32,696 nt of DNA, taken from positions 1-32,696 of the IMG/VR virus record IMGVR_UViG_3300037307_000155. One strand, written 5' to 3'. The stretch is from a virus. Its lineage: Duplodnaviria > Caudoviricetes. Shown here piece after piece: positions 11,304-32,696 of the stretch. The translations under genes and the position numbers were made by a program. How positions within the stretch are numbered: the stretch's first letter is position 1; each line of letters begins with the position of its first letter. The notes beneath the pieces are model-generated. The model was not told the DNA's origin, made no database searches, and worked only from the letters and a program-made list of their open reading frames with translations.

Positions 11304-11304
<1 letters not shown>
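10825..11304 (-). CDS. Collagen-like fibre protein C (159 aa): 20 Gly-X-Y triplets plus an H-type-lectin-like C-terminal domain
   Basis: ATG at 11304 overlaps the upstream TGA; uninterrupted triplets GLP...GNH; C-terminal F..TPTVVVS...WFAVG. Confidence 0.8.
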
Positions 11305-11815
<511 letters not shown>

Positions 11816-11819
<4 letters not shown>

Positions 11820-12304: not shown

Positions 12305-13068
12305 CAGTAGTCACTGCCCGTGTCGATCCAGAGCAGGACGTTCGGATCCGTGGGCTGCGTAAGCCCGACCTCGACCTGGCGGTACAACGGGTGCGGGTTG
12401 GGGTCGATCAGGTGGGCTGCCATCTGGTTGTCGGAGTAGGTCTTCGCGTTCGACTCAGCAGTGCCGGCAGCCCCGGCTGCGTCGTAGCGGGCGTCCCCAC
12501 GCGCGTTGTTCAGGTACTGCGGATGGTCGTCATCCCCCAGCCCGGTCAGGTCGCCGTGGTCCAACACCCCGCCACCACCGACGCCGGGAATCCCGGTGTG
12601 GTCGATCAGCGCATGACCTGCAACGGTCAGCTCTCCGGGGTCTCCCTTCTCACCTTGGATCCCTTGGATCCCTTGGATCCCTTGGATCCCTTGGATGCCC
12701 TGCGGCCCCTCCGGTCCCTCCGGCCCAATGGGACCGGGGACAGTCGAGTCTGCTCCGGGATCTCCCTTGTCACCCTTCAGGCCCTGCGGTCCCTCTGGCC
12801 CAATGGGACCGGGGACAGTCGAGTCTGCTCCGGTGTCGCCCTTGTCACCCTTGTCGCCCTTGTCGCCCTTCGGCCCCTGGATCCCTTGGAGGCCGGGCGG
12901 CCCCTCCGGTCCCTCCGGTCCCGGCTCCCCACGGGGTCCGGCCGGCCCGATGCTCGGCTCGATCTTGACCGGGCCGGGCAGGGCGAACGTCAGCTCATGG
13001 ATCGTCGGCAGCTCGACGCGGACCTCTGCCGCTGCAGGTGGGGCAACCCTGATCTCGAGATCGGTCAT
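12304..13068 (-). CDS. Collagen-like tail fibre shaft (254 aa) with HPQY motifs and a C-terminal LWIDT motif
   Basis: Pro-rich Gly-X-Y tract with a duplicated [15 protein letters not shown] block; DDDHPQYL and DPNPHPLY motifs; ends in [16 protein letters not shown]. Confidence 0.8.
12653..12696. repeat. 9-bp tandem repeat (c)ccttggat x5, encoding (GIQ)n
   Basis: Directly visible. Confidence 0.9.
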
Positions 13069-14380: not shown

Positions 14381-15742
14381 TCAGGCCCAGGTCGCCAGGT
14401 CGCCGGCCTCCTGCACAGGCAGGTTGCCGTCGAGGAGCCCACCGCTGGTGTACGGCGAGTGGAACCACGTGGGCCGGGACTTGAGCGTGTCGACACCAGA
14501 CAGCGGGTAGGTGACCGGCGAGACGGACAGCTGGGCGCGGGCCGCAGCGACCTGATCGGCGACGAACTGGAAGGAGTCGTCGACGACCTGCAGGTTGGTG
14601 ACCGAGGCGGGGAGGAACAACGGGACCACTCCCTCCGAGAGCTGGTCGATGACCCAGCAGTCGTACGAGAAGTCCTGCACGTACTCGGTCCCCTTGAACC
14701 GGGTGCCGCCGTCCTGCTGGCGCTTCTGCGAGAAGTACTCGTACGTCTGGATCGCGTTCTTGTACGCGGCCAGGGCGACGACCTGACGCAGGGTGCGCGA
14801 GCCGGTGCCGGAGTTGGCGACCGGGTCGACCACCAGGTTGGCGTCCGTGTACACCTTCGGCAGGAACTCGGGGTGGATCTTGACCAGCTTCCACGACCCC
14901 TTCAGGGTGCCGAGGTAGCCGGCCGCGTTCGCGCCCGAGATGTCACCGTCGCGGTACAGCTTGAACGCCGACTCGGTGCCGGCACCCTTGTCGATGAGCG
15001 CGTTGATGAACACGAGCTCGAGGGCGCTGGTGATGAGCAGGAAGCGCTCGCTGTTGCCGAAGTTGCTGTCGAACCAGTTGTCCGAGAACAGCAGGGTGAG
15101 GGCGTCGAGCGTGCTCAGCGGATCCGTGTCGTCGAGGTACATGCCGGTGATCGTGGCGAACGACGGCTGGATCTGGTTGTCGTAGTCCTCGCCCGGCTCC
15201 GCGATCCAGCGGTAGTCGGCGGCGTTGCCGGTGCAGGCGATGCGGTCGGCGTCATCCGTCTCCGGGGGCGGGACGTCGGTGCTGAGCCGCGGCACCAGCT
15301 TGCCGGTCATGTGGCCCATGACGGCGGCGAGGAGGCAGTACTTGTCGTGGTCGCGGAGCACCGTGGTCTGCATCTTGCGGCCGGTGTACTCCTGCACGAT
15401 GTTCTTGATCGGCGAGTACTGGAGCTGCTCGTCGAACACCGTGAAGCCGAAAGCGCGATGCCGGCTCATGGAGTACGTGCGCCACTCGATCGGAGGGATG
15501 CCGTTCTTCCACTCGGACGTGTACTCGGATCCCGAGTAGTGGTCCGCGCCGATGCGGCTGATGTCCGCGTCCACGATGTAGTCGTCGACCCGGATGTCCG
15601 GCACGCGGATGCTGCGGGCGTTGGGGTTGGGCTTGATCTCGTTGCCTGTGAACATCCCAGCCACGGGGCTGGTGATGCGAAGGTACGTGGCCAGAGCGAC
15701 CTGGTAGTCGGTCAGGCTGTCCTTCTGGACTGGTGCGACCAT
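14381..15742 (-). CDS. Major capsid protein, probable HK97 fold (453 aa)
   Basis: Follows the portal; AGGAGG RBS; strongly GC3-biased codons; capsid-like patterns (SIRVPDI..DY, TYSMSRHRAFGFTVFD, DHDKY, RFLLIT); followed by a hairpin. Confidence 0.75.
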   Translation of the reverse strand: MVAPVQKDSLTDYQVALATYLRITSPVAGMFTGNEIKPNPNARSIRVPDIRVDDYIVDADISRIGADHYSGSEYTSEWKNGIPPIEWRTYSMSRHRAFGFTVFDEQLQYSPIKNIVQEYTGRKMQTTVLRDHDKYCLLAAVMGHMTGKLVPRLSTDVPPPETDDADRIACTGNAADYRWIAEPGEDYDNQIQPSFATITGMYLDDTDPLSTLDALTLLFSDNWFDSNFGNSERFLLITSALELVFINALIDKGAGTESAFKLYRDGDISGANAAGYLGTLKGSWKLVKIHPEFLPKVYTDANLVVDPVANSGTGSRTLRQVVALAAYKNAIQTYEYFSQKRQQDGGTRFKGTEYVQDFSYDCWVIDQLSEGVVPLFLPASVTNLQVVDDSFQFVADQVAAARAQLSVSPVTYPLSGVDTLKSRPTWFHSPYTSGGLLDGNLPVQEAGDLATWA

Positions 15743-15776: not shown

Positions 15777-17762
15777 TCAGGCGCTGGCGGGCATCACGTT
15801 AGTAGGCTCTTGTGGGCCTGTCGACATACCTCCTTCGTTGTACGGTCCCTCAGCACCGGAAGAAGGCTCCACGGCACCTAGAGCTTGCAAGATGCTCTGC
15901 TGCGTCTCCCTGAGAAGGGCGATCTGCTCCTGCATCTGGCGCAGCGCGTTCTCGTTCATGAGCATCGCATCGTTCATGTTCGACGCCACATCGTTGATGG
16001 TGTCCTCGACAGTGCCGATGCGGGCGTCCCGCTCGTCCACAGCCTGCTGGTCGCCCTTGAACACGAGGCCGAGGTCCTTCGCCGAGGTCGAGCCCGACAG
16101 CTCGATCTGCTTGCCGATGATGTACTGCATCGCCTTCGCGGCCTGCGCGAGCATCTGCTGGTCCTGTGCAGCAGCCAGCGCCGGCATCGCCTGCGACAGC
16201 GGGACGAACAGCTCGTTCAGGATCCGCAGCTGCTTCTCGTCCTCCATCTCCACCAGCGAGCCGGGGACCACACGGACCCAGTACTCGATGGCGAGGTTGG
16301 CGAAGTCGATGTCGAGCGTGCCGTCCGGGTTCAGCACCTCGACCGGGAGGCCGGCCTTGAGCAGCTTGAGCCGGGCATCAGCGGTGGGCGTGACGCGCCT
16401 GACTGCCTTCAGCTCCTGGAAGTACATGGTCAGGGCGTACGAGCAGTAGTGGCTGAAGAAGGACTCGATCGCCTTCTGGTAGTTGTTCGTGGTGATGTCC
16501 ACCATCTGCTGCTGGGCCTCGACACCCTGCGGCGTGGCGGAGAATCCGTTGCCTGCCTGCGTCGCCATCTGCTGGTCGGCCGCCCCGATGAGGCTGACCA
16601 TCGAGCCGAGGTTCTGCTCGCTGATCGCACCGAACTGCATGAGCGTCTGGGTGTTCACCTCGAACGGCTCGATGCGGGCGTTCGGGTTGCCGATCTGCGT
16701 GTACTTGCCGGGGCTCAGGTTCGGGATCGCGTTGGTCGTGCCGAAGCCGATGATGCTCGGGTTGATGTTCCGGTACCAGAGCTTCATCGCCCCGTTGAGC
16801 ATCAGGTCCTGGAAGTCCTGCCGGCCGATCAGCAGCTCGACCTGCGACTTGCCGAGCGGCTGCTGGCTGTCCTTCTCGAGCACGAGGAAGTGGACCGGGT
16901 GCTGCTTGAGCGGGTGCTTGTTCTGCTCGATGCGCAGCAGGTGCTTGGTGTACGGGGAGAAGGTGAGGAACGGAACGCCGGTCGAGGAGTACCAGGTGAT
17001 GATCTCGTAGCCCTCGGGGACGATGCCGAACTTGTTGGTCTGGTAGTCGACCGACTCGTGGCTACGACCATAGGGCGCGGACTTCAGCAGCGACTTCAGT
17101 GCAGCGGGATCCCAGCCGGTGACGTTGCCGCGGATCAGGGCATGGACATCGCCCTTGGTCAGGTACCGGCGCACGAACACCTCGGTGGCCTGCCGCACGT
17201 CACGGGCGCCGGGCTCGGGGAAGACGTCCCGGTAGTGGATCGAGTCGTACTTCATGTACCAGCCACCGGCTGCGTCCTGCAGCAGCACGGGGATCACCAC
17301 GTCGAAGCCGAGCGTGAGCGCGGTCTTCGTCGAGGCGAACAGGTTCTGCTGCATGTCGTTGCTGTAGTTGTCGGTGCCGATGATCTTCGTGGTGAGGATG
17401 TGCTTGCTGAAGATCCCCATCGTCGAGTCGTCGTCGAACTTGGACAGCACCTCGACATTGGGGCAGTTTTGCACAAGATTGCGGGCGATCCGCCGGATCA
17501 GCCCAGCCGTCTCCCCGGAGGAGATGTTGGGCAGGTCGGGCTTCGGGGTGATGACTGAGCCGTCGGCCAGCTTCTCCAGCTTGTAGTAGTTGGCCACGCG
17601 CTTGTCCATCTCGGACTTGTACTGCTGGTACTGCTGGTACATGTGATGTCCGAATGGCGCAATGTTTCGGACATCGAGCGTGCCGTCCCTCGAGTCGATG
17701 CGGTACTCCCCGTACCAGTCCTCGAAGGAGCGGATCGGGCTCTCGTCCATCATCACTGCCAC
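15777..17762 (-). CDS. Portal protein (661 aa) with a C-terminal coiled coil
   Basis: Size, position before the capsid gene and podovirus-portal-like patterns (DVFPEPGA, KHPLKQHPV, PLGKSQVE.L...Q, SATPQGV); GGGAGG RBS before the GTG. An alternative ATG at 17753 is possible. Confidence 0.75.
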   Translation of the reverse strand: MAVMMDESPIRSFEDWYGEYRIDSRDGTLDVRNIAPFGHHMYQQYQQYKSEMDKRVANYYKLEKLADGSVITPKPDLPNISSGETAGLIRRIARNLVQNCPNVEVLSKFDDDSTMGIFSKHILTTKIIGTDNYSNDMQQNLFASTKTALTLGFDVVIPVLLQDAAGGWYMKYDSIHYRDVFPEPGARDVRQATEVFVRRYLTKGDVHALIRGNVTGWDPAALKSLLKSAPYGRSHESVDYQTNKFGIVPEGYEIITWYSSTGVPFLTFSPYTKHLLRIEQNKHPLKQHPVHFLVLEKDSQQPLGKSQVELLIGRQDFQDLMLNGAMKLWYRNINPSIIGFGTTNAIPNLSPGKYTQIGNPNARIEPFEVNTQTLMQFGAISEQNLGSMVSLIGAADQQMATQAGNGFSATPQGVEAQQQMVDITTNNYQKAIESFFSHYCSYALTMYFQELKAVRRVTPTADARLKLLKAGLPVEVLNPDGTLDIDFANLAIEYWVRVVPGSLVEMEDEKQLRILNELFVPLSQAMPALAAAQDQQMLAQAAKAMQYIIGKQIELSGSTSAKDLGLVFKGDQQAVDERDARIGTVEDTINDVASNMNDAMLMNENALRQMQEQIALLRETQQSILQALGAVEPSSGAEGPYNEGGMSTGPQEPTNVMPASA

Positions 17763-20700
17763 TGCTTCAGCCTCCCTCGCTCGGACGTGATTCGCTCACG
17801 ACGCACCTCGGAGCGACGGATGAGCGGAGTGTTCGTGTTGATCGCGTAGACGTTGTCGAACCGTGCAGCCGTCCCAGTGGGCAGGCGATCCATCCGGTCG
17901 AACCTCGGGCTGCTGCTGTACCCACCACCACCACCACCACCGTAGCCACCGCGACCATAGCGACGGTAGCCATAGCGACGGTAGCCGTACGACCCGCGGC
18001 GGGGGTAGAACTTCTTGGAGGTGGAGTTCTTGAGCGGATCGTCTCCGACGTCCTTCTTCTCCTTCTCCTCCTCCTCCTTGGGCTCGATCGGCTTCGGGAT
18101 GAGCCCGGCCTGCCCAGTGTTGATGCCGAGCACGTCGTCCACGACGTTGTATCGCGCGTCGAGGTGCGTGCCCTTCCTCGGCTTCCAGACCTGGTGCGGC
18201 GACGGGATGCCAGTGATGGCCTGGAACAGGGACTGCTTCTCGAACGGGGTGGCCCACGGCTTGCCATCCGGCCCGATCACGTAGGTCAGGTTGGCCTGCA
18301 GGTACTCCGCCTTGGGAGTGGTGGGGATCCGGTCGTCGTTCAGCAGCGCCTTCAGGCCGGGCTGGTCAGGGAACTGGGGGTCCCCGTACCAGAGCCGGTT
18401 GGCCATGTAGTTCGCCTGCTGCTGGGTCATCCCATCGTCGACACCCTTCTGGATGAGATCGTCCAGCAGCTCCTCCCCGATCTCCTTGCGCATCGGGATC
18501 GGAATCGCAACGCCACGCAGGGACGCATCACCGAGCTGGAGCTCGCCCTTCCAGAGCGCCCGGTAGACCGCAGAGCCACCGTCCTTCTGGATGAGCTCGC
18601 GTCCCTCATCATCCAGGATGCTGAGGATGTAGTCGCTGTCAGTCTGCGAGGCGTAGATCGCGTCGGCCTCGGCCTCGATGTCATCCTGGTCGTACCAGAT
18701 ACCAGCAGCCTTGGACTTCTCCTGCAGCGTCTTGATGATGTCCATCTTCGAGTACTCGGGAGCGCCGCCCAGACCGTGCCATGCGGCGAGGATCAGGGCC
18801 TTGGCCTCCGACTTGGTGGCCTCGTCGACGAACGCGGTCGGCGTCTTCGGCACCATGTTCCTGCGGAGGTAGGTGCTGCTGGTCCCCCCGGTGAACAGGG
18901 AGAGGATCGTGGCCGCGACGGCGTTGTTCTCCGAGTACTGGTGCAGGGTGGCCTGGATCCCCTCGCGCGTCAGGTAGGCGTTGCCGATCGTGCCGTCCGG
19001 CTTCACGTAGCCGTGGAGTGCGTCCGTCTCCTCGGGCACGCCCATGCCGTTGACCCGGAGGATGTTGCCCTCCTCGTCAGTCGCCGGGATCAGCCACGGG
19101 TTCCGGTCGTACTCGTCCTTCGCGTTACGGATCGAGTTGATCCAGTTGTTCTCGAAGATCGCACGCTCGTACATCCCAACGATGTGGGCGAACGTGCCCA
19201 TGTACGCAGCGTTGCCCTCCGGGGTGTCGAGGTCCAGGTCCTTCGCGTTCATCATCAGCATCCGGGCGGACACGTCGACCTCCCGGTACAGCCGGGTGAT
19301 GGAGTTGGGGATTGCCGCAGCGGCGTCCCAGAACCCCAGCCTGACCTCGTTGAAGTTCCCGGTGTCGAAGAACCTCTGCATCCCCATGATCGGGGAGAGG
19401 AACTGCTTCATCACCCAGTGGGGCTGGATGGCGGATCGACCTGTGGGGTCCTTGAACAGCCCGTTCAGGATCGGGATGTTGTCGAGGAAGATCGCGTCCT
19501 TCATCCTGAAGTCGTTGTTCGCCTTGTACGGGTCGTGGTAGTAGGGGATGTTGAGCAGCTCGGCCAGCTTGCGACGCTTCCGCTCCTCCTCATCCTCGCC
19601 ACCGAGGCCCAGGTTCGACGCGAGGAAGCCGGCGATGAAGAACTGGGTCTGGGTGACAGCGCCACGGACGAAGGCACGGGACAGGTCCACGCCGTCGAGC
19701 ACGTCGGAGTAGTCGAACCTGTTCTCCGTGTCCTGCTGGTACGCCTCGCCACGAGCCCGAGCCGCCATCCGCTTGAAGTACTCGGGCTTCTGCTTGCCGT
19801 CCAGCCACATGGCTGCCATCGTGTCGAACGCCTGCAGCCCAGTGACCGTCATGAACATGTTCATGTTGAAGCGGGTGAAGGCGAAAGGGATCTTGACCGC
19901 GTGGCCCGTGGTGTTGATCATCCAGCTGGAGCTCGAGGTCATGGCCTCGACCCGCTTCATCATGTGCTGCGCAACCAGCGTCTGCTTGGCACCACGGTTC
20001 TGGGCCACACGGTTCATGGCCATCTTGTGCGCGCCGCCCCGCTGGTCGGAGGTCATCTTCTTGAGCCAGAGCGGATCCCTGCGCATCATCTCGACGAACT
20101 GCTCGACGGTGATGTTGCTGTCCGTCAGGGACAGGACCTCCCACGCAGCGTCGATGTACCTGCGAACCACGGCCTTGCCCGTCATGCCCCACTTGGGGTC
20201 GGCCATGATCCGGGCCGCGGTGTGGGCCATCGTCTCGAGGCCGGATCCGAGCTTCGTCCGATGCTCGCGGTTCACGAACATCTGGTAGGACATCTCCTTG
20301 TAGAGCTCGCCGAACAGCTCGTTGCTGTGCGACAGGGTCTCCACCAACTGGTCGAGCATGTCCCGCTGCTGATTCGTGAAGTAGGGCTGGACCACGACCT
20401 CCTCGCGCTTATCGAGCCGACGGAGGACGTTGAGCAACTTGTTGATCTCCTCACGCGCGTTCTGCGCCTGACGAGATCCAGCACCCTGGTGTGCCCCGTA
20501 GATGAAGTTCGTGAAGTGCTCGATCTGGCTGCGGAACGGGACCTCGAGGATGGCCGACATGTACAGCTGGGGGTTGAACAGCCGGTTGGCGATCGAGAGG
20601 TGCATGATGTTGTGGAGCAACGCACTCGTGACGCGCGAGTTCTCCTGGTACGCAGCCCCGACCTTGGCGTACTGCTTCACCGAGAGCCGCTTCTGCTTGG

Positions 20701-23700
20701 CCATCTTCTTGCCAGCCAGCCACTCCCTCTGCTTCTCGATCTGTGCAGCCAGTGTGGAGTCAGGCGTGGTGGCCGCGGTGTCTGCGGTGTAGAGCGGGTC
20801 GATGCTGCCCGTCAGCGTCTCGAGGGTGTAGAGCATCCCGTCGATGACGACCGGGTTGCGCAGGATGGAGTCATGCCCCTCGCTGATCGAGAGGTAGTAC
20901 CTGTTCGTCTTCTCGTCCATCAGCTTCGCAGCCTTGGCCGCGTTCACCGACAGGTCCATCTCCATGAACAGGTCGGTGGCCCCCTGGTACGTGTGGTAGA
21001 AGCCGTCGAGCGCCGTGCCGAACATGCTGTGGAACGGGGAGTCCGACTCCCTCAGCTGCCCGTGGAGGCTCACGACCCACTCGTCCCAGCCCTTGGCAAG
21101 GGTCGTCGTCTTCCCGCCCTCGAGCGCAGCAGGAGCCCACCGCTCATCAGACCGTGCAGCAGGGATCCTGAGCTGGGCGTTGTAGACCATCTTCCAGAAC
21201 GACTCGTGCTCGAGCGGGACAGCCGCCCCATGCAGCGGGTGCCAGTTGTTCTGGATGTTGATCATCATCAGCTCGACAGCCTGCACGTACATCTCTGACG
21301 TCAGCTGGTCCTGGTACGTCCCATCCCTCTGCTGCTGAGCAGACGGAGCAGGAGCACCGAGGAACTGCCGCACGAGGAAGTCGATCTCGTCGATCATCTC
21401 GCTGCCGCCGAGCTGATCGAGGTTCAGCCTCTGGATCATCGACACTGCAGCGGAGCGAGCAGCAGCCTTCTCCTGCTTGCTCCACTTCTGCCACGGTGCC
21501 GTCGTCGCGTACTGGCGGACCTGGGCGTCTGCCTCCTCGACGTAGGCCACCTCCATCGGCTGCTTGCGGTCGTACGGGGAGTACGGGGAGCGGCCGGCGA
21601 AGTTGCGGATCAGGTTGTAGATCGTCTCGCCGTCACCGTTGTCGAACCGCATGACCTCGTTGTCGCCGTAGATCTCGTCGAGCTTGGTGCGCTCGGGGAT
21701 CGGGTTCCCGTCCTTGTCCCGCTTCAGCGGCCTGGTGGCGGTCAGGCCACCGATTGCGCTCTCCACCGTGCGCGCGATGTGCGGCGAGGCAGGGGCCTCG
21801 TTCTGCAGGGACGCCTGCGTCAGCGTCTGGTGATTCTCGTCGAACGGGATCGGCATGTGGACCTGGAGCGTGCCCTCCACATCCATCCAGCCGCCCTTGC
21901 CCCCATTGACCGTGTCGCTCCAGATCCTCTGGTGGAAGCGGAGCCGACGATCGAAGTAGTGGGTGAGGTTGCCCGCGGCGTCCCTCGGCATCCGCGAGTT
22001 GATCTTCCCGATCAGGTAGTCGCGCAGCTCTGGGTTCTTCGGGCTGTTCAGGGCATCCGTGAACAGCGGCGGCATCCTCAGAATCGAGTTCGCCGGCGAG
22101 TTCCGGTCCTTCACGGTCATCAGGCCCGAGGTAGACAGGACGTGCTCGAGCTTCATCCCCGGTGCAGCCAGGGTCACCATGACGATGCGGAAGATGTCCT
22201 GCTGCGGGTTCAGGCTGGAGCGGTTCGGAGTGGTCCAGTCCACGTCCGTCCAGTTGGTGCCGGCGACCCTGCGACCGATCGCATTGACCTCGGCGCCCAG
22301 CCCCGCCAGCACCGTGTCGGAATCCATCGCGCGAGCGATCTCCTCGGCGGTGAAGTTCTTGCTCACCTTCGACCAGATCTCGAAGACCTCTTGCAAGGTG
22401 TTCCACTGCGTCGAGGCGTCCGCAGGATCCCGGTTGGTGCCGAACGCAGCGTCGAGCAGGTCGTCCCGGAAGTCGATGCCGGTGACGGTGAAGATGTCGC
22501 GGAAGTTGTCGCAGAACCCCTGCCACGCTCCCTTGGCGACGGTGCTCGTCTCCGAGTAGAAGCGGGTGACATGGATCCCCTGGGCGTCCTGCGTCGCCTT
22601 CATCGGGTCCGCAGGGAACTTCCAGTGGCCGGGGATGTGCGTCATCCCGTCCTTGAAACCCACACCCTCGCGGCCCATCTTGACATGACTGTCGGTTACG
22701 GCCTTGCCGATAACTGAAAGTCCGTTGACGTCGGGGGTCACGGAGACCACCTCGAACGGCGGAGGCAGCGACTGCTTCTTGTCGACCTTGGCCTTGGAGA
22801 TGGACAGCTTCATGGGCAGGTTGCTCGCCAGATCGCCCGGAGTCTGGTTGTGCATCTTCGTCATCTCGTCGATGCTCGGATGCTCGAAGCCCACCCGGTA
22901 GATGTAGACGTCGCCGTTCTTGGAGACCAGCGGGATCATCGTGCCGGTGCGGATCGTGGTGCCCACATCCGTGGGCCAGATGCCGTTCTGCAGGTTGTTG
23001 ATCAGCTCCTCGAGCGCATCGTCGAAGGACATGATGCCGGGCTCGAGGATGTCGCTGTCCTTGTGGTACTTGCGGATCCTCGCGTTCTTCGGGTTGGACT
23101 GTGCGTCCCCGCCCGTCATCTTCTTCAGGGTCTTGACGACCTCGTCGTTCGTGAGCAGGGCGGGCAGCTCAGCAGTCAGCTTGGCACGCTGGTCGTGGCC
23201 ATCCCTGCCGATGCCGGCTGTCGGCACGTTGTACGACCGGCCGGGGCGCCGGCCCTGCTTGGTCGCATCCATCTGGACGGGCATGATCGTGTGGGTCACC
23301 CGGTTGAACTGCTCGTCCTTCTCGGCCCAGATGTGGGTGTTGTTCTCGCTGAGGTCGGTGGCCAGCCCGTTCGAGGCGAGGCCGAGAACGAGACCCCGTG
23401 CGGACATGGGGACGACCTCGGTGAGGGTGGACTCCGCAGCACGCTGGGCCTGCTCGTACTTCGAGTCGGGTGTCATCGGGGAGAAGATGTGCCCGGAGTG
23501 GGCCATCGCCTCGTAGCCGAGCCATCCGTTGGCCAGGGCCTGGGACACACCCACCCGCATGTCCTGCTCACCGGGCGGGTTCATGAGCGCGATCGTCACG
23601 CCGTACTCCGAGTACGCCTTCACCACGTCGAGCGCGAGCTCGAGTGCCTTCTCGTGGTTCTGACCCGTGGCGTCGAGGATGGATTGCATGTCGATGACGA

Positions 23701-26700
23701 CCACGTCGCCGTACATGGGGCGGAACGGGCTCTTGCGATCGAAGCCCTTCCTCAGGGACGCAGCACTCAGCCGGCCCTGCGACGGGTCGGAATCGGACTT
23801 GTGATCGTGGAGGAACACCATGTTGTTCGTGTCGGTCATGGTGTCACCGAGCCGTGCGACCATCGCCTGGCTGCGGGTGATCGCATCACCATTCGACAGG
23901 TCGGAGTGGGGCACGCCCATCCGGTTGAACAGCGGCTGCAGCGCCTCCAGCGAGATGGCCTGTGTCAGCCTGTCGATGTTCTCCTGGTTGATCCGGGTGA
24001 TGTCGAGGGTGCCCTTGCCCTTCTTGCGCTTGTCGAGCCTGCGCAGGGAGGTCTCCTCGCGCTCCTCGACCCACTTCTTGATCCGCAGGGTCCAGCGATC
24101 ATCGAGCGCCTTGGCCTCCTTGGACTTCCGCTGGCGAGCCCGCGGCAGGGCAGTCGTGGTGGCGAGCAGCGACTCCGCGAGCTCAGTGGTCTCGCCGAGG
24201 CGGGTGATGCCCAGTGCCTTGAGCCGGGCCAGAGAGAGATCCGGCTGGATCATCAGGTCCTTCAGCTGGAAGACCGGCTTGATCATCTTGCCCGACACGC
24301 CCATGTAGCCGGCTGCACCTCGCAGCGTCTGCGCCACGGAGTCGCTGAGCGGGATCAGCTGGACATCCTGGTACGGCAGGCTCTGGTTGGGGCCGAGCGC
24401 CTGCTCCTCAGAGATGATCTTCTCGGGCCAGACGAACTCGATCGACCCGTCATGCTGGGTGACCTTGACGACGTGCCGCATCCGCATCAGCTTGTGCAGC
24501 GAGGGCAGGTCCATCGGGAGCAGGGAGCCGGTGGGGTAGTCCTGGCTCCACATGTGCATGGCCTTGAGCATCAGCTGGTGGGAGATGGTGCCCTGCGACT
24601 CCATCTGCTCGACCTCGTCCAGCATGGTGGTGACGTGAGCCCGGAACTGCTTGCCCTTCTTGGCCGCCATGTCCAGCGGCTGCTGCTGCCCCAGCTTGTT
24701 CAGCCCGTTCACGCCGAAGAACAGGGCGGCGATGGCACCCACGCCGGAGCCACCCTGGTCCTCACGACCCACGCCGTCGAAGAAGATGTTGTTGGCCCAC
24801 TCCTTGGTGGCCGGCATCTTGTCGACGTCCACGTAGTCGAGCTCGATCTTGAAGTCGGTGGTCAGGATCCCGTTGGAGCGCAGCGTGTTGAGCGCCTGAT
24901 TCAGACGCTGCAGCGTGAACACCCGGTACCCGGACTGCTCGATCGCATCGTTCGTGGTGTTCACCCGGCCGATCATCTCGAAGAAGTCATTGGCCGCCAC
25001 GATCTCGTTCCCCTGCAGGTCGGTGATCTTGGCACCGCGGAGGAAGTGGCCCTGCAGCTTGACGTAGGACTCAGGGAAGCCGGGCTTCAGCAGATCAGGC
25101 GCACTCGAGGTGGCCTTGCCGGTGAGCGTGTGCTGCGAGTGGTGAACAGCCTCGGGCTTCTTCCAGGTGATCAGGCTGGATGAGACGTAGGACTCCATCT
25201 CCTTCGGGTCGTTGCCCTCGATCGCCACGGCCGCACCGACCGGGGCGGTCAGCATGATCTGCCGCGCCTTCATCGACTCGACCGGGATCCGGTCGGACCA
25301 CTTGCCGATCCGCTTCTCGCTGAGCAGGGAGTCGGTGCCCTCGGTCAGCTTCTTCTCGATCGACGAGATCGTCGGGTCCGTCCCCCCGTACGAGTGCTTC
25401 ATCGCCAGCTCACGGGCAGCATGGAGGACGTTCGGGTCGAACAGGGGCTCGGCCAGGTACCCCTGGGAGATGTCGAAGTACCTGCGCTGGCTCAGGGCGT
25501 CGTCCCCGAGCATGGCCGTCGGCAGCTCGTAGGTGGATGCACCACGGCTCATCAGGTCAGAGGTGTAGGCCGACATCGCCCAGCCACCGAGGACCTGCCA
25601 CTCCTTGTCCGTGATCTGGTCCGCGTACGCCTGGTCACGCTCCGCCTCGGTCGCCAGCTCACCGGGATCGTGGAAGATCAGCTTCTTCGCCTTGTGGTAC
25701 AGGTCGATGTGCTCCTTCGGGCGGAACCTGTTGATCCGGTTCCCCGACTCGAGCCACTGCATGATCGTCACGCGCTTCATCGCCTTGGCCGCAGGATCGG
25801 CGTTCGGGTCGAGCGTGAACATCTCGGTCATGGAGTTGAGATCACGCAGCGTCATCTTCGGCAGCTCGAGGAAGCCCGAGTCCGAGGTGAGCCGCTTGAT
25901 CGAATCCGAGAGCGCCGTCATCGACAGCTTGAGCTCAGCCAGCTTGTCGTTGATCTCCTGGATCCTTGCCGGGTCCGTGGCATTGCGCTTCTCGTCGTTC
26001 AGGATGTCGCGCTCGGCGTCGATCCGGTTCTGCTCGTGCTGGATGTACTTCTGCGCCTTCTGCATCAGGCCGAGGTGGATGAACTCCTTCTCCATCTCCG
26101 ACTGGAACAGGTCCTTGTACGGGCCGGCGTCGTCGGTCAGGCGGGCGTACATCTTCTCCTTGACCCGCTTGAGCAGGTCACCATGCAGAGCAGGATCGAG
26201 GCGGGAGATGTCCTTGATGGCGTCCGCCACCTCGACGATCAGCTTCTGCCGCATCATCTCCTTGTCGACCGTGCGGTTCGCTGGGCCGTGGGTGTAGGCA
26301 ACGAGGAAGTCGTTGATCATGTTCATGATCGGCATGTAGCCAGCCGACCGCTCCTCGGGCGTCCCGTTCGCCACGGCCTTCCTGACATGGCCCTCGATGA
26401 GCCCGATGTAGCGGTGGGCCTGCTTGACCTTGTCGGACCACTCGGACTTCTCGGCGAACAGGACGTTGCCGTTCACCGTCTCCTCGAGCATCTTGCCGAT
26501 GTCCCTGACATGGCTGCCGTCGAGGTCGATGTAGGTCTGCAGCACGCCGTTGTTGTCGACGTCGCGCACGGTGGGGGCGAGGATGGCCATCGCCAGCGGC
26601 TGGGTCCGCGGATCCGCCAGCATCGCCAGCGCCTGGTCCCCGTCCGAGACGTCGATCCGCACCGACGAGCCGTCCGGCATCATGATGCGCACCGGCCCCT

Positions 26701-29700
26701 CGACCAGCTTCGTCAGGTTCGTGGCCACGTCGGCGAAGTCCAGCATCGTCATGGCGTTGGCCTCCTGGCGCAGGCCGTCAGCCCAGCCGAAGCCGTCCAT
26801 CGTGACCGTCGCCTCGCCGAACGGGGCGGCGTTCGGGTCGCCCTTGCCCTTGTCGTGGGTGCGTGCGAGGGCGTGCTGCATCAGCGCCATGACCTGATCG
26901 CGGGAGATCTGGCCCTGCGTGTCGGGGAACTTCCGCCGGAACTTGATCAGGTCCTCGAGCAGGGCGTTGTACGTCGCGTGCGGGGCCGACACCGTCGGGT
27001 CCTTGCGGTTGGCCACCATGTTCGCCAGCAGCGACTCGTTGTTCTTGCGGATCACCTCGGTCTCCGCGGCCCGCTTGCCGTACACGGAGAGCTTCTTGCC
27101 CCACTGCTGCAGCGCCTCACGGGTCACGGTGCCCGGGGTGCCGGAGTTCCAGACGTCGTCGAAGTCCACCTCGAACATCTTGACGTCGTCGTGGTAGGCG
27201 AACAGTCGCTCCCGGTCCATCCTCCAGGCGTCCTGCTCGTTGATGTCGTCGAAGAAGTCCTGCAGGGTGCCCGGCTGCTCCATCAGCTTCAGCAGCTTCA
27301 TCAGCTCCATCTGGTCCGGCTGCTGGGAGAGGTGGTGGAGCAACTGCAGGAAGCGCGACTCGATGCGATCGAAGTGGATCTTGCCCGCTGCCTCGGCTGT
27401 GGTGTCAGCGTCGATGCTCTCCTCTTCCTCGAGGCCCCGGGCCTTGGTGCCGGCGAGCTGGTTCAGCTCTGCCAGCTTGGTGTGGACGAACCAGATCTTC
27501 GCTGCCTCGTCCGGCTTGGCCAGCAGCATCTTGTCGACCCACTTGGCGACCTTCACATCGTGGCCGTCGACCTCGAACACCCCGAGCTGGGACGCCTTCG
27601 GGATGATCTTGGCGACCTCCATCGCCAGCTCGGGCCGGGCGCGCAGCAACTCCTTCAGGATGTTGGCGTTGCTCACGTCCTTGCCGTACTTCTTCATGAG
27701 CGGCAGCGCGTTCTGGGTGCGGAAGTTGGCGATCTCCCGCTGCAGGCCGGACAAGCCCTTGGTGAAGGTGTTGTGGGCGCGCTGGTCTGCGTCCTCCGTG
27801 TCCTTCACCATCGTCCGCGCGACCGAGGCGATCGAGTCGACCATCATGGAGAAGGCGCTGACCTCACCGGTCTCGAGGACCTCCATCCCCCACGGCGGAT
27901 CCGCCAGCTTCGAGGGCTTGATGTACGCCGGGGAGCGGTGCAGGCGGGCCACGGTCTGGTCGCGCTGAATCTTGCCCATCCCGATGATGTGCATCTTCAG
28001 CTGGTTCAGCGTCATCGAGGGCGCGATGTACATCGAGGAGTCCCCGACGAGCTCGTGCAGCTGGCGGTCCCCGAACACCTCGAGCACGGCCTTGGCGTGG
28101 GTGACCGAGTGCGGCCCCTTCGGCACCGTCAGCGCCTTCAGCTTCTTGATCTTGGCGTGGATCGGATCGTCCGGCAGCGCCTTGCGGGAGTTGACCTCCT
28201 CGATCGCCAGGCTCTTGCGCAGCAGCAGCTGCAGCAAGGTGATCGAGCCCTCGGTCACCGTGTAGGTGCCGTCCTTCTCCACGAGGTTGGGCACCGACAT
28301 GTTGGCCAGCAGCATCCTGATCTCCGCCGGCGTCCTGGAGAGGGATGGCGTGTTCGCCATGATCTCCTCGACCAGCATGTCGATCCAGACGTTCACCCTG
28401 TTCTGGATGGCGTTGCGGCCCTGCACATGCGCGACGTCCGACTCCCACTGCCCGCTCTGCGCCGCGTACTGGTTGGCGAGGTCGAACTGCTGCTGGGAGA
28501 TCCCCGAGCCCTTCTTCAGGTACCCGGCATCCGTCAGCGACCGGAGGAACGGGGAGTAGTGCAGCACCTGCCCCTGCCGGACGGACACCACCGAGCCCAG
28601 CATGGACAGCGCCTGGCCCGCGTTGGCCGCGTTCAGCCGGGCGATGCCGTTCTGGAAGTCCCGCTCCTTGGCCACACGGGCCGGGTTGCCGACCGGGGCG
28701 TTCTGCGGCTGCAGCGCCTTGATATGGGCCAGCCCCTGCTGCACCGAGTCGAACATGATGTTGATCCGGTTCAGCATCCAGAGCATCTCCGGGCCGGCCA
28801 TCTCGCCGTTGACCGCCCGGTCGCCCATCTCGAACAGGCCCTCGGCGTTGTGGTTGAACAGCGTCTCCACCAGCGTCTGCCGGGCCGACACCACGCCCGA
28901 GCGCACGTCCACCTTGAACTGGTCGAGCGCCTTGGACAGCACCGCGTCCTCGATGGGGCCGTTGTTGCTCTGCGCGTACCTGGCCTGGAACGAGGAGCTC
29001 AGGTGGGTGAGCGCATCGTTCAGCTGCTTGTACCTGTCGGTGCCCGGCCCCGAGTCGTGCGCGGCCTTGAAGTAGTTCAGGAACGTCTGCTCGGAGTCCG
29101 GGGTGTCCGCGATCATCTCGAGGAACGTCTCGTCCCGGGACGGATCCATCGGCGAGGTGTCCGTCTTGTTCGCCCGAGCCTTGTACTTCGTGGAGACGTA
29201 CTGCGTCCCGCGCCGCATCTCGCGCATCCGGTCGCGCGGCAGGTAGATCTCGTGCAGCGGGATGGTGGTGTCACCGTCGTGGTCGGCACCCTGCGCCTTC
29301 AGGCCGCCCTGGTGGGTGTAGATCGTGTTGTTGATCCCCCACTTGGTCATCTCCTCGCTGATCTGCATGACCTTCACGGCGAAGGAGCCACGATCCATGT
29401 ACGGGTGCCGGCCGATCTTCAGCTCGACCGAACGGCGGATCAGCTCCTGCGTGGCATCGTCGACCCGGTTCCCCGCGTTGTCGACCCACTCGCCGGAGAA
29501 CGCGGCGCGCATCTGGGTGTTGATCGACTTGATGATCCGGGAGCGCTCGGCCGGGTCAGGCTGCGAGGTCAGGTCCGCGAACGCCTTCTCGAACTTGGCG
29601 AGGATCTGCTTGTTGACGCCCAGCAGGTCCTTCGTCTCGTCGAGGAGCACGTTGTTCGCGTCGATCAGGCGCTGCACCTCGTCGATCGCGTCCTGGTTCT

Positions 29701-32053
29701 TCGACTCCGTGGCCTTCTTCATCTCACCGTCGAGGCGGACCTTCTCATCCTCGAAGTTCTGGCGGGCCGCGGTGTTCCCCTGGTAGATCAGGCGCATCTG
29801 GTTCATGAACTCGGCAGCCGAGAGGATGCCCGCGTTGGCCGGGAACTCGCTCCGCTCGATCACACCGTGGGGGGTGACGATGTTCTTGCCGGACCAGCCC
29901 ATCGTGACGAGGCTGCCGTTGCCCTCCTGCAGCGCCTTCTTCCTCGAGGTCTCCCAGTCCGTCTTCATGACCTCCGCACCCGCCGCACCGATCGTGGCGG
30001 AGTGGACGTCGTCCGTGCGCTGGAGGTCGGTGAGCGTGTCAACGATCGTCTTGATGTCCTCGTTCTCCTGCTTGGTGGCCGTGGCCATCCGCGCCCGCTC
30101 CTCGGGCGTGGCGTTCTTCCAGAACTCGTTCCACTGGGCGTCGTCCGGCATCATGCCCGTGCGCATGAAGACGTTGACCTTGGCCCGCGCCTCCTGCTGT
30201 TGCGCGATGGAGGGCCGCGCCATGCTCCCGCTCATGCCCATGCCGATGCCGGACGCCGCGCCGTACATGCCGGCCTCGAAGATCTGGTCCCACGTCGCCG
30301 TCTCGCCCACGGTCATCGGGTCGAGGACGGCCTGGAAGACCTCCTCACCACCCTCCGCCCAGCCGAGGATCACCGCATCACCCAGCCGGGTGCCGTAGCT
30401 CGCCGTCTTCTGCGCGGCCTGGAACAGGTCATCCCTGGTGACGATCTTCCGCCCGTCGCGCAGCGCCATCCGCTGGGCCATCCAGCCGGTCGGCACCCAC
30501 CGCAGGAACTCGCTGGGGACCAGCGCCTCCAGCGTGGTCTTGCTGCTGACCACCTCGAGCTTGTCGTTGTACTTGTAGACCCGCCCGTTCAGGGTGACCT
30601 CGTACAGGTCATCCGCCACCTTGTTCGCGTCATCGAACGGACCCTTGGCCCAGGCCCGTGCCTTCTCGCTCGCGGAGTGCAGCTTGCCCGCCACGCCCAT
30701 CTGCAGCACGTCGATGCCGACCGAGCCGGCCAGGGAGAGCCCCTCGGGGATGGACTCGATGTTGTCCCATGCACCGCGGGAGTCGTTGAACGTCGTCCCA
30801 CCGAGCCCGGTGATGAACTTGCCGCCCGCCACCGCCGCCATGTTGCCCATGTAGAACATGCGGCCGAACGGGTTGGCGAACTGCAGCATGGAGTCGCCCA
30901 CCGTGGCCACCAGGTCCAGCCCGCGCACCCACTTGTTGGCCTCACGCCGGCCAGTGCTGCTGTAGGCGTAGAACTCCGACTCGCCGTCCCCGATGCCGCC
31001 CTCGCTGCTGGCATCGACGATCCCCTGCGTGACGTTGCTCAGCGGCGCCATGAACTTCATGCCGAGCTCCCCGACGCCCATCGCCGCCGAGCCGGTCACC
31101 GCAGCGACCTGCTGCCACCTGTTGAACGTGCCGTCACCCTCGACCCGCTCCGTCGAGTACCGCTCGGCCGCCTGCTCCGTCCTCGACCATGCACGGGCGG
31201 TGATCTCCGTCAGCTGGTCCTGGTTCATGTACCCGCCAGCAAGGCCCGCAGCCGTGGCGACACCCGCGATGACCGCAGCACCGATGGCCCCGGGACCAGT
31301 CCACGAGAAGCCGGCCGCGGCCAGCCCCATCGAGGTGAGCACCGTGCCGCCCCATGCCATGCCGCCAGCCGTGGCACCGCCGGCCAGCGTCATCAGCGCG
31401 CCGCCGCCGTGCTCCCGGATGGTCTCCTGCTTCTTCTCGACGTCGTCCTTGTAGTCCTTGGCGCTGCCGGCCCAGACCGCCCGCTCGTTCCCCCGCTTCC
31501 GCTCCGACTCCACCTTGTCGCGGAACAGCTGGACCCGGTTGTCATCCTCGAACATCCGCTGCTTGTCGACCCGGTTGAACATGAGCTCGCCCATGAGCAG
31601 GTCGGCCGTGTACTCATCGTGGACGTCGTAGAGGTTCTGGCCCTTCTGGACCTTGCCCTTGACGAACACGTCGCCGAACTTGAAGCGACCCTCCGGGTCG
31701 TCCCACATGGCGACGCCCGTGGCCCTCTGGTTGCCCGGGACCAGCCACTTGTAGAACTGGGTGGGATCGTCGCGCTCCGCGGCGAGGCGCTGGTAGTGGT
31801 CCACCTGCCGGAACATCTCGTTGTAGAAGTCCGTGTCCCAGCCGTTCCTGCCGCTGGTGGGATTGGCCCCGGAGTACCAGCTGTAGGCGGACTCCGCCAT
31901 CGAGGTGGTGGGCGTCCACGGGGTGAACCCGCCCGGCTGCGGGCCGGCCGCGACACCGCCACCGACCCGCTCGTACGTAGCAGTGAGCCCGGTGGGGTTC
32001 GCCGGGTTCCTGGCCGCCCGCTCGTAGTCAGCGACCTTGTCCCAGTTGACCAT
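17753..32053 (-). CDS. Giant 4766-aa virion protein; putative ejected two-barrel (DPBB) RNA polymerase
   Basis: Uninterrupted 14.3-kb ORF heading the structural operon. N-terminal hydrophobic Gly/Ala segment; SGK (721-723), RHP (882-884) and DHDGD (924-928) motifs; Arg/Tyr/Gly-rich C-terminal tail. The ORF is secure; the function is inferred. Confidence 0.75.
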   Translation of the reverse strand: MVNWDKVADYERAARNPANPTGLTATYERVGGGVAAGPQPGGFTPWTPTTSMAESAYSWYSGANPTSGRNGWDTDFYNEMFRQVDHYQRLAAERDDPTQFYKWLVPGNQRATGVAMWDDPEGRFKFGDVFVKGKVQKGQNLYDVHDEYTADLLMGELMFNRVDKQRMFEDDNRVQLFRDKVESERKRGNERAVWAGSAKDYKDDVEKKQETIREHGGGALMTLAGGATAGGMAWGGTVLTSMGLAAAGFSWTGPGAIGAAVIAGVATAAGLAGGYMNQDQLTEITARAWSRTEQAAERYSTERVEGDGTFNRWQQVAAVTGSAAMGVGELGMKFMAPLSNVTQGIVDASSEGGIGDGESEFYAYSSTGRREANKWVRGLDLVATVGDSMLQFANPFGRMFYMGNMAAVAGGKFITGLGGTTFNDSRGAWDNIESIPEGLSLAGSVGIDVLQMGVAGKLHSASEKARAWAKGPFDDANKVADDLYEVTLNGRVYKYNDKLEVVSSKTTLEALVPSEFLRWVPTGWMAQRMALRDGRKIVTRDDLFQAAQKTASYGTRLGDAVILGWAEGGEEVFQAVLDPMTVGETATWDQIFEAGMYGAASGIGMGMSGSMARPSIAQQQEARAKVNVFMRTGMMPDDAQWNEFWKNATPEERARMATATKQENEDIKTIVDTLTDLQRTDDVHSATIGAAGAEVMKTDWETSRKKALQEGNGSLVTMGWSGKNIVTPHGVIERSEFPANAGILSAAEFMNQMRLIYQGNTAARQNFEDEKVRLDGEMKKATESKNQDAIDEVQRLIDANNVLLDETKDLLGVNKQILAKFEKAFADLTSQPDPAERSRIIKSINTQMRAAFSGEWVDNAGNRVDDATQELIRRSVELKIGRHPYMDRGSFAVKVMQISEEMTKWGINNTIYTHQGGLKAQGADHDGDTTIPLHEIYLPRDRMREMRRGTQYVSTKYKARANKTDTSPMDPSRDETFLEMIADTPDSEQTFLNYFKAAHDSGPGTDRYKQLNDALTHLSSSFQARYAQSNNGPIEDAVLSKALDQFKVDVRSGVVSARQTLVETLFNHNAEGLFEMGDRAVNGEMAGPEMLWMLNRINIMFDSVQQGLAHIKALQPQNAPVGNPARVAKERDFQNGIARLNAANAGQALSMLGSVVSVRQGQVLHYSPFLRSLTDAGYLKKGSGISQQQFDLANQYAAQSGQWESDVAHVQGRNAIQNRVNVWIDMLVEEIMANTPSLSRTPAEIRMLLANMSVPNLVEKDGTYTVTEGSITLLQLLLRKSLAIEEVNSRKALPDDPIHAKIKKLKALTVPKGPHSVTHAKAVLEVFGDRQLHELVGDSSMYIAPSMTLNQLKMHIIGMGKIQRDQTVARLHRSPAYIKPSKLADPPWGMEVLETGEVSAFSMMVDSIASVARTMVKDTEDADQRAHNTFTKGLSGLQREIANFRTQNALPLMKKYGKDVSNANILKELLRARPELAMEVAKIIPKASQLGVFEVDGHDVKVAKWVDKMLLAKPDEAAKIWFVHTKLAELNQLAGTKARGLEEEESIDADTTAEAAGKIHFDRIESRFLQLLHHLSQQPDQMELMKLLKLMEQPGTLQDFFDDINEQDAWRMDRERLFAYHDDVKMFEVDFDDVWNSGTPGTVTREALQQWGKKLSVYGKRAAETEVIRKNNESLLANMVANRKDPTVSAPHATYNALLEDLIKFRRKFPDTQGQISRDQVMALMQHALARTHDKGKGDPNAAPFGEATVTMDGFGWADGLRQEANAMTMLDFADVATNLTKLVEGPVRIMMPDGSSVRIDVSDGDQALAMLADPRTQPLAMAILAPTVRDVDNNGVLQTYIDLDGSHVRDIGKMLEETVNGNVLFAEKSEWSDKVKQAHRYIGLIEGHVRKAVANGTPEERSAGYMPIMNMINDFLVAYTHGPANRTVDKEMMRQKLIVEVADAIKDISRLDPALHGDLLKRVKEKMYARLTDDAGPYKDLFQSEMEKEFIHLGLMQKAQKYIQHEQNRIDAERDILNDEKRNATDPARIQEINDKLAELKLSMTALSDSIKRLTSDSGFLELPKMTLRDLNSMTEMFTLDPNADPAAKAMKRVTIMQWLESGNRINRFRPKEHIDLYHKAKKLIFHDPGELATEAERDQAYADQITDKEWQVLGGWAMSAYTSDLMSRGASTYELPTAMLGDDALSQRRYFDISQGYLAEPLFDPNVLHAARELAMKHSYGGTDPTISSIEKKLTEGTDSLLSEKRIGKWSDRIPVESMKARQIMLTAPVGAAVAIEGNDPKEMESYVSSSLITWKKPEAVHHSQHTLTGKATSSAPDLLKPGFPESYVKLQGHFLRGAKITDLQGNEIVAANDFFEMIGRVNTTNDAIEQSGYRVFTLQRLNQALNTLRSNGILTTDFKIELDYVDVDKMPATKEWANNIFFDGVGREDQGGSGVGAIAALFFGVNGLNKLGQQQPLDMAAKKGKQFRAHVTTMLDEVEQMESQGTISHQLMLKAMHMWSQDYPTGSLLPMDLPSLHKLMRMRHVVKVTQHDGSIEFVWPEKIISEEQALGPNQSLPYQDVQLIPLSDSVAQTLRGAAGYMGVSGKMIKPVFQLKDLMIQPDLSLARLKALGITRLGETTELAESLLATTTALPRARQRKSKEAKALDDRWTLRIKKWVEEREETSLRRLDKRKKGKGTLDITRINQENIDRLTQAISLEALQPLFNRMGVPHSDLSNGDAITRSQAMVARLGDTMTDTNNMVFLHDHKSDSDPSQGRLSAASLRKGFDRKSPFRPMYGDVVVIDMQSILDATGQNHEKALELALDVVKAYSEYGVTIALMNPPGEQDMRVGVSQALANGWLGYEAMAHSGHIFSPMTPDSKYEQAQRAAESTLTEVVPMSARGLVLGLASNGLATDLSENNTHIWAEKDEQFNRVTHTIMPVQMDATKQGRRPGRSYNVPTAGIGRDGHDQRAKLTAELPALLTNDEVVKTLKKMTGGDAQSNPKNARIRKYHKDSDILEPGIMSFDDALEELINNLQNGIWPTDVGTTIRTGTMIPLVSKNGDVYIYRVGFEHPSIDEMTKMHNQTPGDLASNLPMKLSISKAKVDKKQSLPPPFEVVSVTPDVNGLSVIGKAVTDSHVKMGREGVGFKDGMTHIPGHWKFPADPMKATQDAQGIHVTRFYSETSTVAKGAWQGFCDNFRDIFTVTGIDFRDDLLDAAFGTNRDPADASTQWNTLQEVFEIWSKVSKNFTAEEIARAMDSDTVLAGLGAEVNAIGRRVAGTNWTDVDWTTPNRSSLNPQQDIFRIVMVTLAAPGMKLEHVLSTSGLMTVKDRNSPANSILRMPPLFTDALNSPKNPELRDYLIGKINSRMPRDAAGNLTHYFDRRLRFHQRIWSDTVNGGKGGWMDVEGTLQVHMPIPFDENHQTLTQASLQNEAPASPHIARTVESAIGGLTATRPLKRDKDGNPIPERTKLDEIYGDNEVMRFDNGDGETIYNLIRNFAGRSPYSPYDRKQPMEVAYVEEADAQVRQYATTAPWQKWSKQEKAAARSAAVSMIQRLNLDQLGGSEMIDEIDFLVRQFLGAPAPSAQQQRDGTYQDQLTSEMYVQAVELMMINIQNNWHPLHGAAVPLEHESFWKMVYNAQLRIPAARSDERWAPAALEGGKTTTLAKGWDEWVVSLHGQLRESDSPFHSMFGTALDGFYHTYQGATDLFMEMDLSVNAAKAAKLMDEKTNRYYLSISEGHDSILRNPVVIDGMLYTLETLTGSIDPLYTADTAATTPDSTLAAQIEKQREWLAGKKMAKQKRLSVKQYAKVGAAYQENSRVTSALLHNIMHLSIANRLFNPQLYMSAILEVPFRSQIEHFTNFIYGAHQGAGSRQAQNAREEINKLLNVLRRLDKREEVVVQPYFTNQQRDMLDQLVETLSHSNELFGELYKEMSYQMFVNREHRTKLGSGLETMAHTAARIMADPKWGMTGKAVVRRYIDAAWEVLSLTDSNITVEQFVEMMRRDPLWLKKMTSDQRGGAHKMAMNRVAQNRGAKQTLVAQHMMKRVEAMTSSSSWMINTTGHAVKIPFAFTRFNMNMFMTVTGLQAFDTMAAMWLDGKQKPEYFKRMAARARGEAYQQDTENRFDYSDVLDGVDLSRAFVRGAVTQTQFFIAGFLASNLGLGGEDEEERKRRKLAELLNIPYYHDPYKANNDFRMKDAIFLDNIPILNGLFKDPTGRSAIQPHWVMKQFLSPIMGMQRFFDTGNFNEVRLGFWDAAAAIPNSITRLYREVDVSARMLMMNAKDLDLDTPEGNAAYMGTFAHIVGMYERAIFENNWINSIRNAKDEYDRNPWLIPATDEEGNILRVNGMGVPEETDALHGYVKPDGTIGNAYLTREGIQATLHQYSENNAVAATILSLFTGGTSSTYLRRNMVPKTPTAFVDEATKSEAKALILAAWHGLGGAPEYSKMDIIKTLQEKSKAAGIWYDQDDIEAEADAIYASQTDSDYILSILDDEGRELIQKDGGSAVYRALWKGELQLGDASLRGVAIPIPMRKEIGEELLDDLIQKGVDDGMTQQQANYMANRLWYGDPQFPDQPGLKALLNDDRIPTTPKAEYLQANLTYVIGPDGKPWATPFEKQSLFQAITGIPSPHQVWKPRKGTHLDARYNVVDDVLGINTGQAGLIPKPIEPKEEEEKEKKDVGDDPLKNSTSKKFYPRRGSYGYRRYGYRRYGRGGYGGGGGGGYSSSPRFDRMDRLPTGTAARFDNVYAINTNTPLIRRSEVRRERITSERGRLKQWQ

Positions 32054-32056
32054 CGG

Positions 32057-32224
32057 CTACTTCCCCTTCTGCGCCCGCAGCACCCGCTTCTGCGCCCGCA
32101 GCACCCGCTTCTGCGCCGGGCTCGGGTGCTTCGCCTTCTGCGCAGCAGCACCGAGGATCTTGCCCGCGCTCTCCTTGGAATAGCCCTTCTTCTGGAGCTT
32201 CCCCTGCTCGGACTTGAACGACAT
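32057..32224 (-). CDS. Small very basic protein (55 aa, MSFKSEQGKLQKKGY...), probably leaderless
   Basis: ATG at 32224 lies 6 nt after a TACGAT -10 box, with no SD sequence; Lys/Arg-rich; stop is 3 nt before the giant gene start. Confidence 0.7.
   Translation of the reverse strand: MSFKSEQGKLQKKGYSKESAGKILGAAAQKAKHPSPAQKRVLRAQKRVLRAQKGK
32066..32117. repeat. 21-bp tandem repeat x2.5, encoding AQKRVLR
   Basis: cttctgcgcccgcagcacccg at 32066 and 32087; partial copy at 32108. Confidence 0.9.
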
Positions 32225-32230
32225 GGGCTG

Positions 32231-32259
32231 ATCGTAGCGCCGTACACCCCGCCAGTCAC
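32231..32259 (-). promoter_or_regulatory. Sigma-A-like promoter for the structural operon: -35 GTGACT, 17 nt, -10 TACGAT, 6 nt, ATG
   Basis: Minus-strand reading GTGACT(32259-32254)-N17-TACGAT(32236-32231)-CAGCCC-ATG. Confidence 0.6.
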
Positions 32260-32489
32260 CCCGCCGCCAGCCTCTCTCGCAGGGCTGGACCCTCAATCGT
32301 AGGCCAACTGCCGGGGTGCACCCCGCGGAATACCTGCATAGGTGGGGTCACACCCCACTGCAATGCAGTGCCTGCGGGGTACAGCCCGGGAGCCACCCTA
32401 CGGATCCCTCGGTTCGGGTCCTGGTCTCGGGGACTGATCCTGGGGTTTCGTGCTTCCTCATGGGGTTGAGGACTGTGGAGTTGGACGGA

Positions 32490-32660
32490 TTAGGAAACTT
32501 TTGTGGGAGGTTCAAATAAAAAAGATAAATAAAAAAGAAACAAATTATACCCCCCTATACTATTATATAATATAGTATATATGTATATAAGGCTGTGATG
32601 ATAATGAATATATTATTAGGTTGTTTGTTTTGTATCTATTTTTGATATTGGGAGAACTAC
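32490..32660. promoter_or_regulatory. Extremely AT-rich non-coding island with a hairpin containing TATAAT, upstream of the divergent gene
   Basis: A-tracts on the left and T-tracts on the right; TATACTAT (32556-32563) pairs with ATAGTATA (32572-32579), with TATAAT at 32566-32571. Confidence 0.6.
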
Positions 32661-32674
32661 TGAAAGGACCACCC

Positions 32675-32696
32675 ATGTCAGATGTCAAGTCGAAGA
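32675..32696 (+). CDS. Start of a divergent gene (MSDVKSK..., truncated by the window end)
   Basis: GAAAGGA RBS at 32662-32668, 6 nt before the ATG at 32675. Confidence 0.55.

Follow-up and report, generated by a model that had tools for sequence, protein, structure and literature searches.

The 32,696-nt window analyzed here (positions 1–32,696 of IMG/VR record IMGVR_UViG_3300037307_000155, a linear virus record that is 61% complete) carries a giant open reading frame (ORF) of 4,766 amino acids (aa), whose product is probably a virion-packaged RNA polymerase (RNAP) with two catalytic barrels, predicted to be active, injected with the phage DNA and likely transcribing the divergent early arm of the genome. 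The whole protein returned no matches in Pfam or PHROG, and the assignment rests on a predicted beta-prime-type barrel with invariant catalytic-type residues and on a second, candidate beta-type region further along the chain.

The beta-prime-type barrel and its conservation

The original prediction had picked out three peptides of a beta-prime-type catalytic barrel; these are present, starting at aa 719, 876 and 909, with S721, R882 and D924–D928 (nt 29284–29270) where it had placed them. The AlphaFold model and structure searches bear out the double-psi beta-barrel fold proposed for this region, with six predicted strands (aa 715–720, 741–744, 877–883, 891–898, 910–914 and 929–932), and the ~130-aa helical insertion appears in the model as helices at aa 746–876. 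We regard a beta-prime-type barrel at aa 715–932 as almost certain. Among the structure matches listed, multisubunit beta-prime/Rpb1-type chains lead, and model residues 62–460 superpose on residues 623–946 of T. thermophilus beta-prime and 488–841 of Pol I A190. The best sequence-profile matches are the beta-prime subunits of jumbo-phage RNAPs (phiKZ gp55, AR9) and cellular largest subunits. The S-G of GWSGKN, earlier taken as a barrel motif, is not conserved and lies in the right place but in the wrong register relative to strands 715–720 and 741–744. Clamp or zinc regions were not detected upstream of the barrel, and a profile search with aa 1130–1830 for the bridge helix and trigger loop recovered no RNAP chains.

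The DHDGD at D924 is the sole DxDGD in the protein. From composition only, 0.125 such motifs are expected by chance (3 × 10−4 with an R-x-P 42 residues upstream), so the motif alone is weak evidence and conservation decides. R882, P884, D924, D926, G927 and D928 do not vary across the 44 full-length relatives (42 from our protein collection, plus Araxxi and Akoni), at pairwise identities of 17.5–79% (median 25%). DxDGD occurs in 50 of the 52 collected proteins, the window's own included; in the remaining two, both fragments, the match stops at the motif or ahead of it. The collection was retrieved using the motif-containing region, which entails some selection; the proteins of TinyTimothy and MissAmericana, held out and found via the C-terminus, keep all core residues (2/2). 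The expectation that both motifs would be conserved in homologous giant proteins thus holds, while the His of DHDGD, first described as unusual, is not: the second position is H in 28, Y in 7, F in 6 and R, T or N in one each of the 44. The three aspartates, which hold Mg in the RNAP family, would do the same here.

This invariance of all catalytic-type residues despite a median identity of 25% makes it very improbable that the giant protein has a structural role alone, in ejection or as a tape measure, and carries a dead, inherited barrel. Such a role would fit the mostly helical sequence, its hydrophobic segments and the tape measure annotation of the Araxxi/Arete RefSeq gp27 and MissAmericana gp30 records; however, these phages are podoviruses, and the accessible text of PMC13069448 (2026), which calls the protein's function elusive, finds no similarity to tape measure proteins.

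A separate motif-pattern search yielded 132 loci, of which 48 are true relatives (27/59 viral, 20/26 metagenome and 1/47 genome contigs) and the other 84 were dropped; these motif-chosen loci, which partly overlap the protein set, were counted solely for positions outside the motif. The only family member among the genome contigs (L090, 52.8 kb) is phage-sized and sits in a Chthoniobacteraceae bin, likely as a binned phage. The same pattern blindly retrieved seven beta-prime-like proteins of 512–528 aa from large phages (L009, L020, L021, L023, L050, L053 and L062; four on phage contigs of 237–241 kb), which share the giant family's 42-residue R-to-D spacing and G-S.

A candidate beta-type half

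For a two-barrel enzyme the chain must contain another barrel besides the beta-prime-type one. The candidate, aa 2885–3190, is marked by E2903, G-x-x-x-x-x-G-x-I-I-P-L (3031–3042), K3125, K3134 and K3174. Only five lysine columns are conserved in at least 97% of the 44 sequences (1735, 2497, 3125, 3134 and 3174), with K3125 and K3174 kept in 44/44, K3134 in 43/44 (one Arg) and E2903 likewise in 43/44. Among 36 motif-chosen loci examined, the three lysines are kept in all 33 that reach them and E2903 in 31/36, and both held-out phages retain the beta-like core residues. The region is collinear by eye with E. coli beta 797–1110, its lysines are spaced much like beta K1065/K1073/R1106, and a targeted profile comparison aligns them with this K-K-R triad (P 0.018). 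In blind scans of 58 windows, beta 797–806 and 871–883 scored best at 2885–2894 and 3028–3040. From this conservation and order, aa 2885–3190 are likely the beta-type half.

Two results weigh against this assignment: library searches and three further scans for the beta half were negative, and five of the seven blind-scan templates, including K-K-R, rank other sites first. The negative searches would suit a protein that is a beta-prime half only, in which the lysines at 3125–3174 do something else and the half either is a different nucleotidyl transferase or pairs with a partner such as host beta. We consider this unlikely, since the three lysines are conserved as strictly as the aspartates and have the spacing seen in beta, with two further beta motifs collinear upstream of them, and no half-enzyme of the beta-prime-only kind is known to exist. 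A complete, active two-barrel RNAP is the prediction that we regard as likely. In such an enzyme, aa 2885–3190 would fold as a beta-type barrel and pack onto aa 715–932, with K3125, K3134 and K3174 binding NTP and E2903 near the second metal.

Two other conserved stretches lie nearby. A strongly conserved block at aa ~2410–2540 (24440–24820; P2414, G2427, Q2456, K2497, H2527) gave the top score against a cellular beta profile in one scan, which was not significant, and a conserved strand-helix-strand at aa ~2775–2830 (23564–23735; an alpha/beta domain with invariant D2783) stands just before the beta-like module.

Family, genome setting and the upstream element

The suggested tie to the giant genes of Microbacterium phages of clusters EK and EM proved correct. 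With aa 601–1400, tblastn matched 20 phage records, every one Microbacterium EM/EK, and the last 1,000 aa match 58 phage records (57 Microbacterium, 1 Arthrobacter); Araxxi gp27 aligns by blastp across aa 58–4766 at 23.8% identity. Homology runs along the chain, and the gene lies before the portal gene as in that family. The EK/EM giants (Burro gp27, Araxxi gp27, Akoni gp31, TinyTimothy gp28 and TicTac gp33) and MissAmericana gp30 resemble the window's protein in core residues, pre-portal place and upstream element, but are merely 22–32% identical to it, and the accessible portions of PMC7302621 and PMC13069448 give them no function. In PMC7302621, so far as accessible, the EK phages are podovirus-shaped, the giant gene is called the largest of any actinobacteriophage, its protein is described as without N4 similarity or known role, and a ~250-kDa Burro virion band is "presumably" gp27 or a processed part of it. 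The term "RNA polymerase" was absent from six EK1 phage announcements of 2023–2026 in our literature search, and we found no publication giving the EK/EM giant protein this function, with subscription journals and supplements outside that search, among them the P23-45 family set, which might affect how new the assignment is.

Features of the window and of the giant protein (coordinates in nt of the window)
Feature	Position	Strand	Basis or remark
Giant ORF, 4,766 aa	17753..32053	−	Homolog of Burro/Araxxi gp27, Akoni gp31, TinyTimothy gp28, MissAmericana gp30
Conserved N-terminal region, aa 1–620	30194..32053	−	Gly/Ala-rich; moderately hydrophobic segments 238–276, 441–459
Predicted beta-prime-type double-psi beta-barrel, aa 715–932	29258..29911	−	AlphaFold model, structure and profile searches
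Helical hairpin insertion in barrel, aa 746–876	29426..29818	−	AlphaFold model; N845 invariant 44/44
R882-x-P884	29402..29410	−	Aligned to E. coli beta-prime R425-x-P427; 44/44
D924-H-D926-G-D928, predicted Mg-binding loop	29270..29284	−	44/44 and both held-out cultured phages
Helical region after barrel, aa 933–1110	28724..29257	−	Superposes on beta-prime/Rpb1 part following barrel
G-P...H-x-K-G stretch, aa 1714–1736, trigger-loop candidate	26846..26914	−	By eye only; K1735 44/44
Candidate beta-type barrel, aa 2885–3190, including a flap-base hybrid motif	22484..23401	−	Residue conservation; in-register profile match, P 0.018
Conserved C-terminal region, aa 3780–4766	17756..20716	−	Strongly conserved; almost invariant basic tail at end
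Portal gene	15777..17762	−	Overlaps giant-gene end; 56% to Araxxi gp28, 54% to Akoni gp32 (both annotated portal)
Likely major capsid gene	14381..15742	−	80% to Araxxi gp29
AT-rich/G-run element, non-coding, single-copy	32495..32590	.	Between giant gene and divergent arm; C-run 32550–32555 on +

The genes adjoining the giant gene match the EK/EM portal and likely capsid genes (60–80% identity to EK/EM counterparts for the latter; a capsid role is proposed for Burro gp29 in the accessible text of PMC7302621), so the giant gene is the first of the structural arm. Directly before it lies a small basic ORF (32057–32296) with a 21-nt tandem duplication and weak DUF7218/phrog_4974 matches. Elsewhere in the window are three side-by-side collagen-repeat tail-fiber-like genes (11304–13068) and an endolysin-like gene (9079–9975; PHROG E 0.006); no alpha-like genes were seen in this incomplete fragment. 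Within the giant protein, aa 1–620 are likely an ejection or membrane-passage part, and aa 3780–4766 likely have a putative packaging or ejection role; these flanks would serve both ejection and packaging of the polymerase. The C-terminus (17756–17960) has a Gly/Tyr/Arg-rich stretch followed by the basic tail, a possible packaging signal.

Upstream of the giant gene, the non-coding element comprises, read towards that gene, an alternating TA run, a run of G4–7 and a TTGT-rich tract. Of the 33 relatives whose upstream DNA is long enough, 32 have it with a score that passes the cut-off, 86–502 nt before the open frame; the cut-off (50) was chosen after the motif was seen, and the 33rd relative scores 49 with the same motif visible. 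One copy each is found in the window and in two 50-kb phage stretches, none in 94 control loci (1.13 Mb), and both held-out phages have it. No sigma-70 consensus was seen at the element. The leading reading, to which we give a little under even odds, is a promoter for the phage enzyme, the rivals being a host-read late promoter, a packaging site or an unwinding element. The divergent arm opens at the window end with a ribosome-binding-like GAAAGGA (32662–32668) and an ATG at 32675; in Araxxi and Akoni this arm encodes a helicase, DNA polymerase I and nucleases. These two phages also have a second non-coding gap (L001 14280–15180 and L002 11842–12795, respectively), in which short GGTAAC/GTTAC and CCATGTCTC repeats abound, along with inverted pairs; this gap is origin-like.

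In the proposed mechanism, the giant protein would be made late, packaged whole or cut, and ejected along with the DNA; the enzyme would then start at the conserved AT-rich element and read towards the replication genes of the divergent arm. A mid-chain cut would give two chains of roughly the size of the Burro band, gel sizes there being rough. Packaging in the particle is indicated indirectly, by the ~250-kDa Burro band and by where the gene lies. Injection and early use are putative, and we rate them as reasonably likely. An active two-barrel polymerase might instead serve chiefly to draw the phage DNA into the host or to prime replication, leaving early mRNA to host RNAP, a role compatible with the polymerase assignment itself but improbable as its main one. 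The single copy of the element per genome, set against the 14 virion RNAP (vRNAP) start sites of P23-45, would suit it, as would the transcription-coupled genome entry proposed for that phage (accessible text of bioRxiv 2022.12.01.518664) and the WhiB-family factor encoded by Akoni, which points to host RNAP for some genes. The precedents of phi14:2 gp66 and P23-45 gp96, which transcribe early genes (bioRxiv 2020.03.07.982082 and 2022.12.01.518664, in their accessible sections), argue against it, as do the relatives' own primase and polymerase.

Comparison with known polymerases and implications

The jumbo-phage and cellular largest subunits share with the giant protein the barrel, R-x-P, DxDGD and the helices after the barrel, but here the barrel lies within one 4,766-aa chain and has a 130-aa helical insertion. 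Coliphage N4 offers another podophage giant polymerase that is packaged and ejected; its vRNAP has a T7-like fold, unlike the two-barrel enzymes considered here. The crAss-like phage polymerase, the model first invoked, fits the likely biology: phi14:2 gp66 is likewise a very large podophage virion protein with a DxDxD loop, and crAss-like phages have known polyprotein fusions (bioRxiv 2020.03.07.982082, accessible text). The architecture departs from it, in that the best listed structure matches are multisubunit chains and the candidate beta barrel is downstream. A connector of ~140 residues joins the barrels of gp66 and QDE-1 (same source) and, in these and P23-45, leads out of the beta-type barrel into the beta-prime-type one (bioRxiv 2022.12.01.518664, as accessible), whereas here the candidate beta barrel follows ~2,000 residues after the beta-prime one. 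No beta-type barrel was indicated before the beta-prime barrel, there being no lysine column at or above 97% before aa 1735 in the 44 sequences (the upstream 650 aa were judged by sequence). The profile score of gp66 against the family core is merely E 0.34.

As described in the accessible sources, P23-45 gp96 (5,002 aa) is also a giant protein of the virion that is injected; its DFDGD lies near residue 780, and it has an AT-rich promoter motif; it belongs to a siphovirus, however, and has a compact enzyme in residues 327–1124 with an inter-barrel connector, fused to a true tape measure. It matches the family profile weakly (E 0.25). An unrelated giant protein, encoded by a 5,608-aa ORF on a 62-kb contig (L039; locus 34% GC), has R-x-P...DVDGD at 3353, weakly matches the family's beta-like core at 3840–3921, and may be a further polymerase in which the beta-prime barrel precedes the beta one.

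The broader proposal of a new architecture is tentative, and we put it somewhat below an even chance: a beta-prime-then-beta polyprotein nearer the cellular and jumbo-phage enzymes than gp66, flanked by ejection parts, possibly present in the capsid as two ~250-kDa "subunits", injected into actinobacteria and served by one family-wide AT-rich/G-run promoter. The analysis supplies a testable function for a gene that accounts for one quarter of the genomes of dozens of phages in culture (58 records) and whose function was still elusive in 2026, and a compact promoter candidate accompanies the polymerase candidate. If true, it would add an independent lineage of vRNAPs, in phages of Gram-positive actinobacteria, with the barrel order reversed, and this reversed order would bear on the origins of single-chain and multisubunit polymerases.
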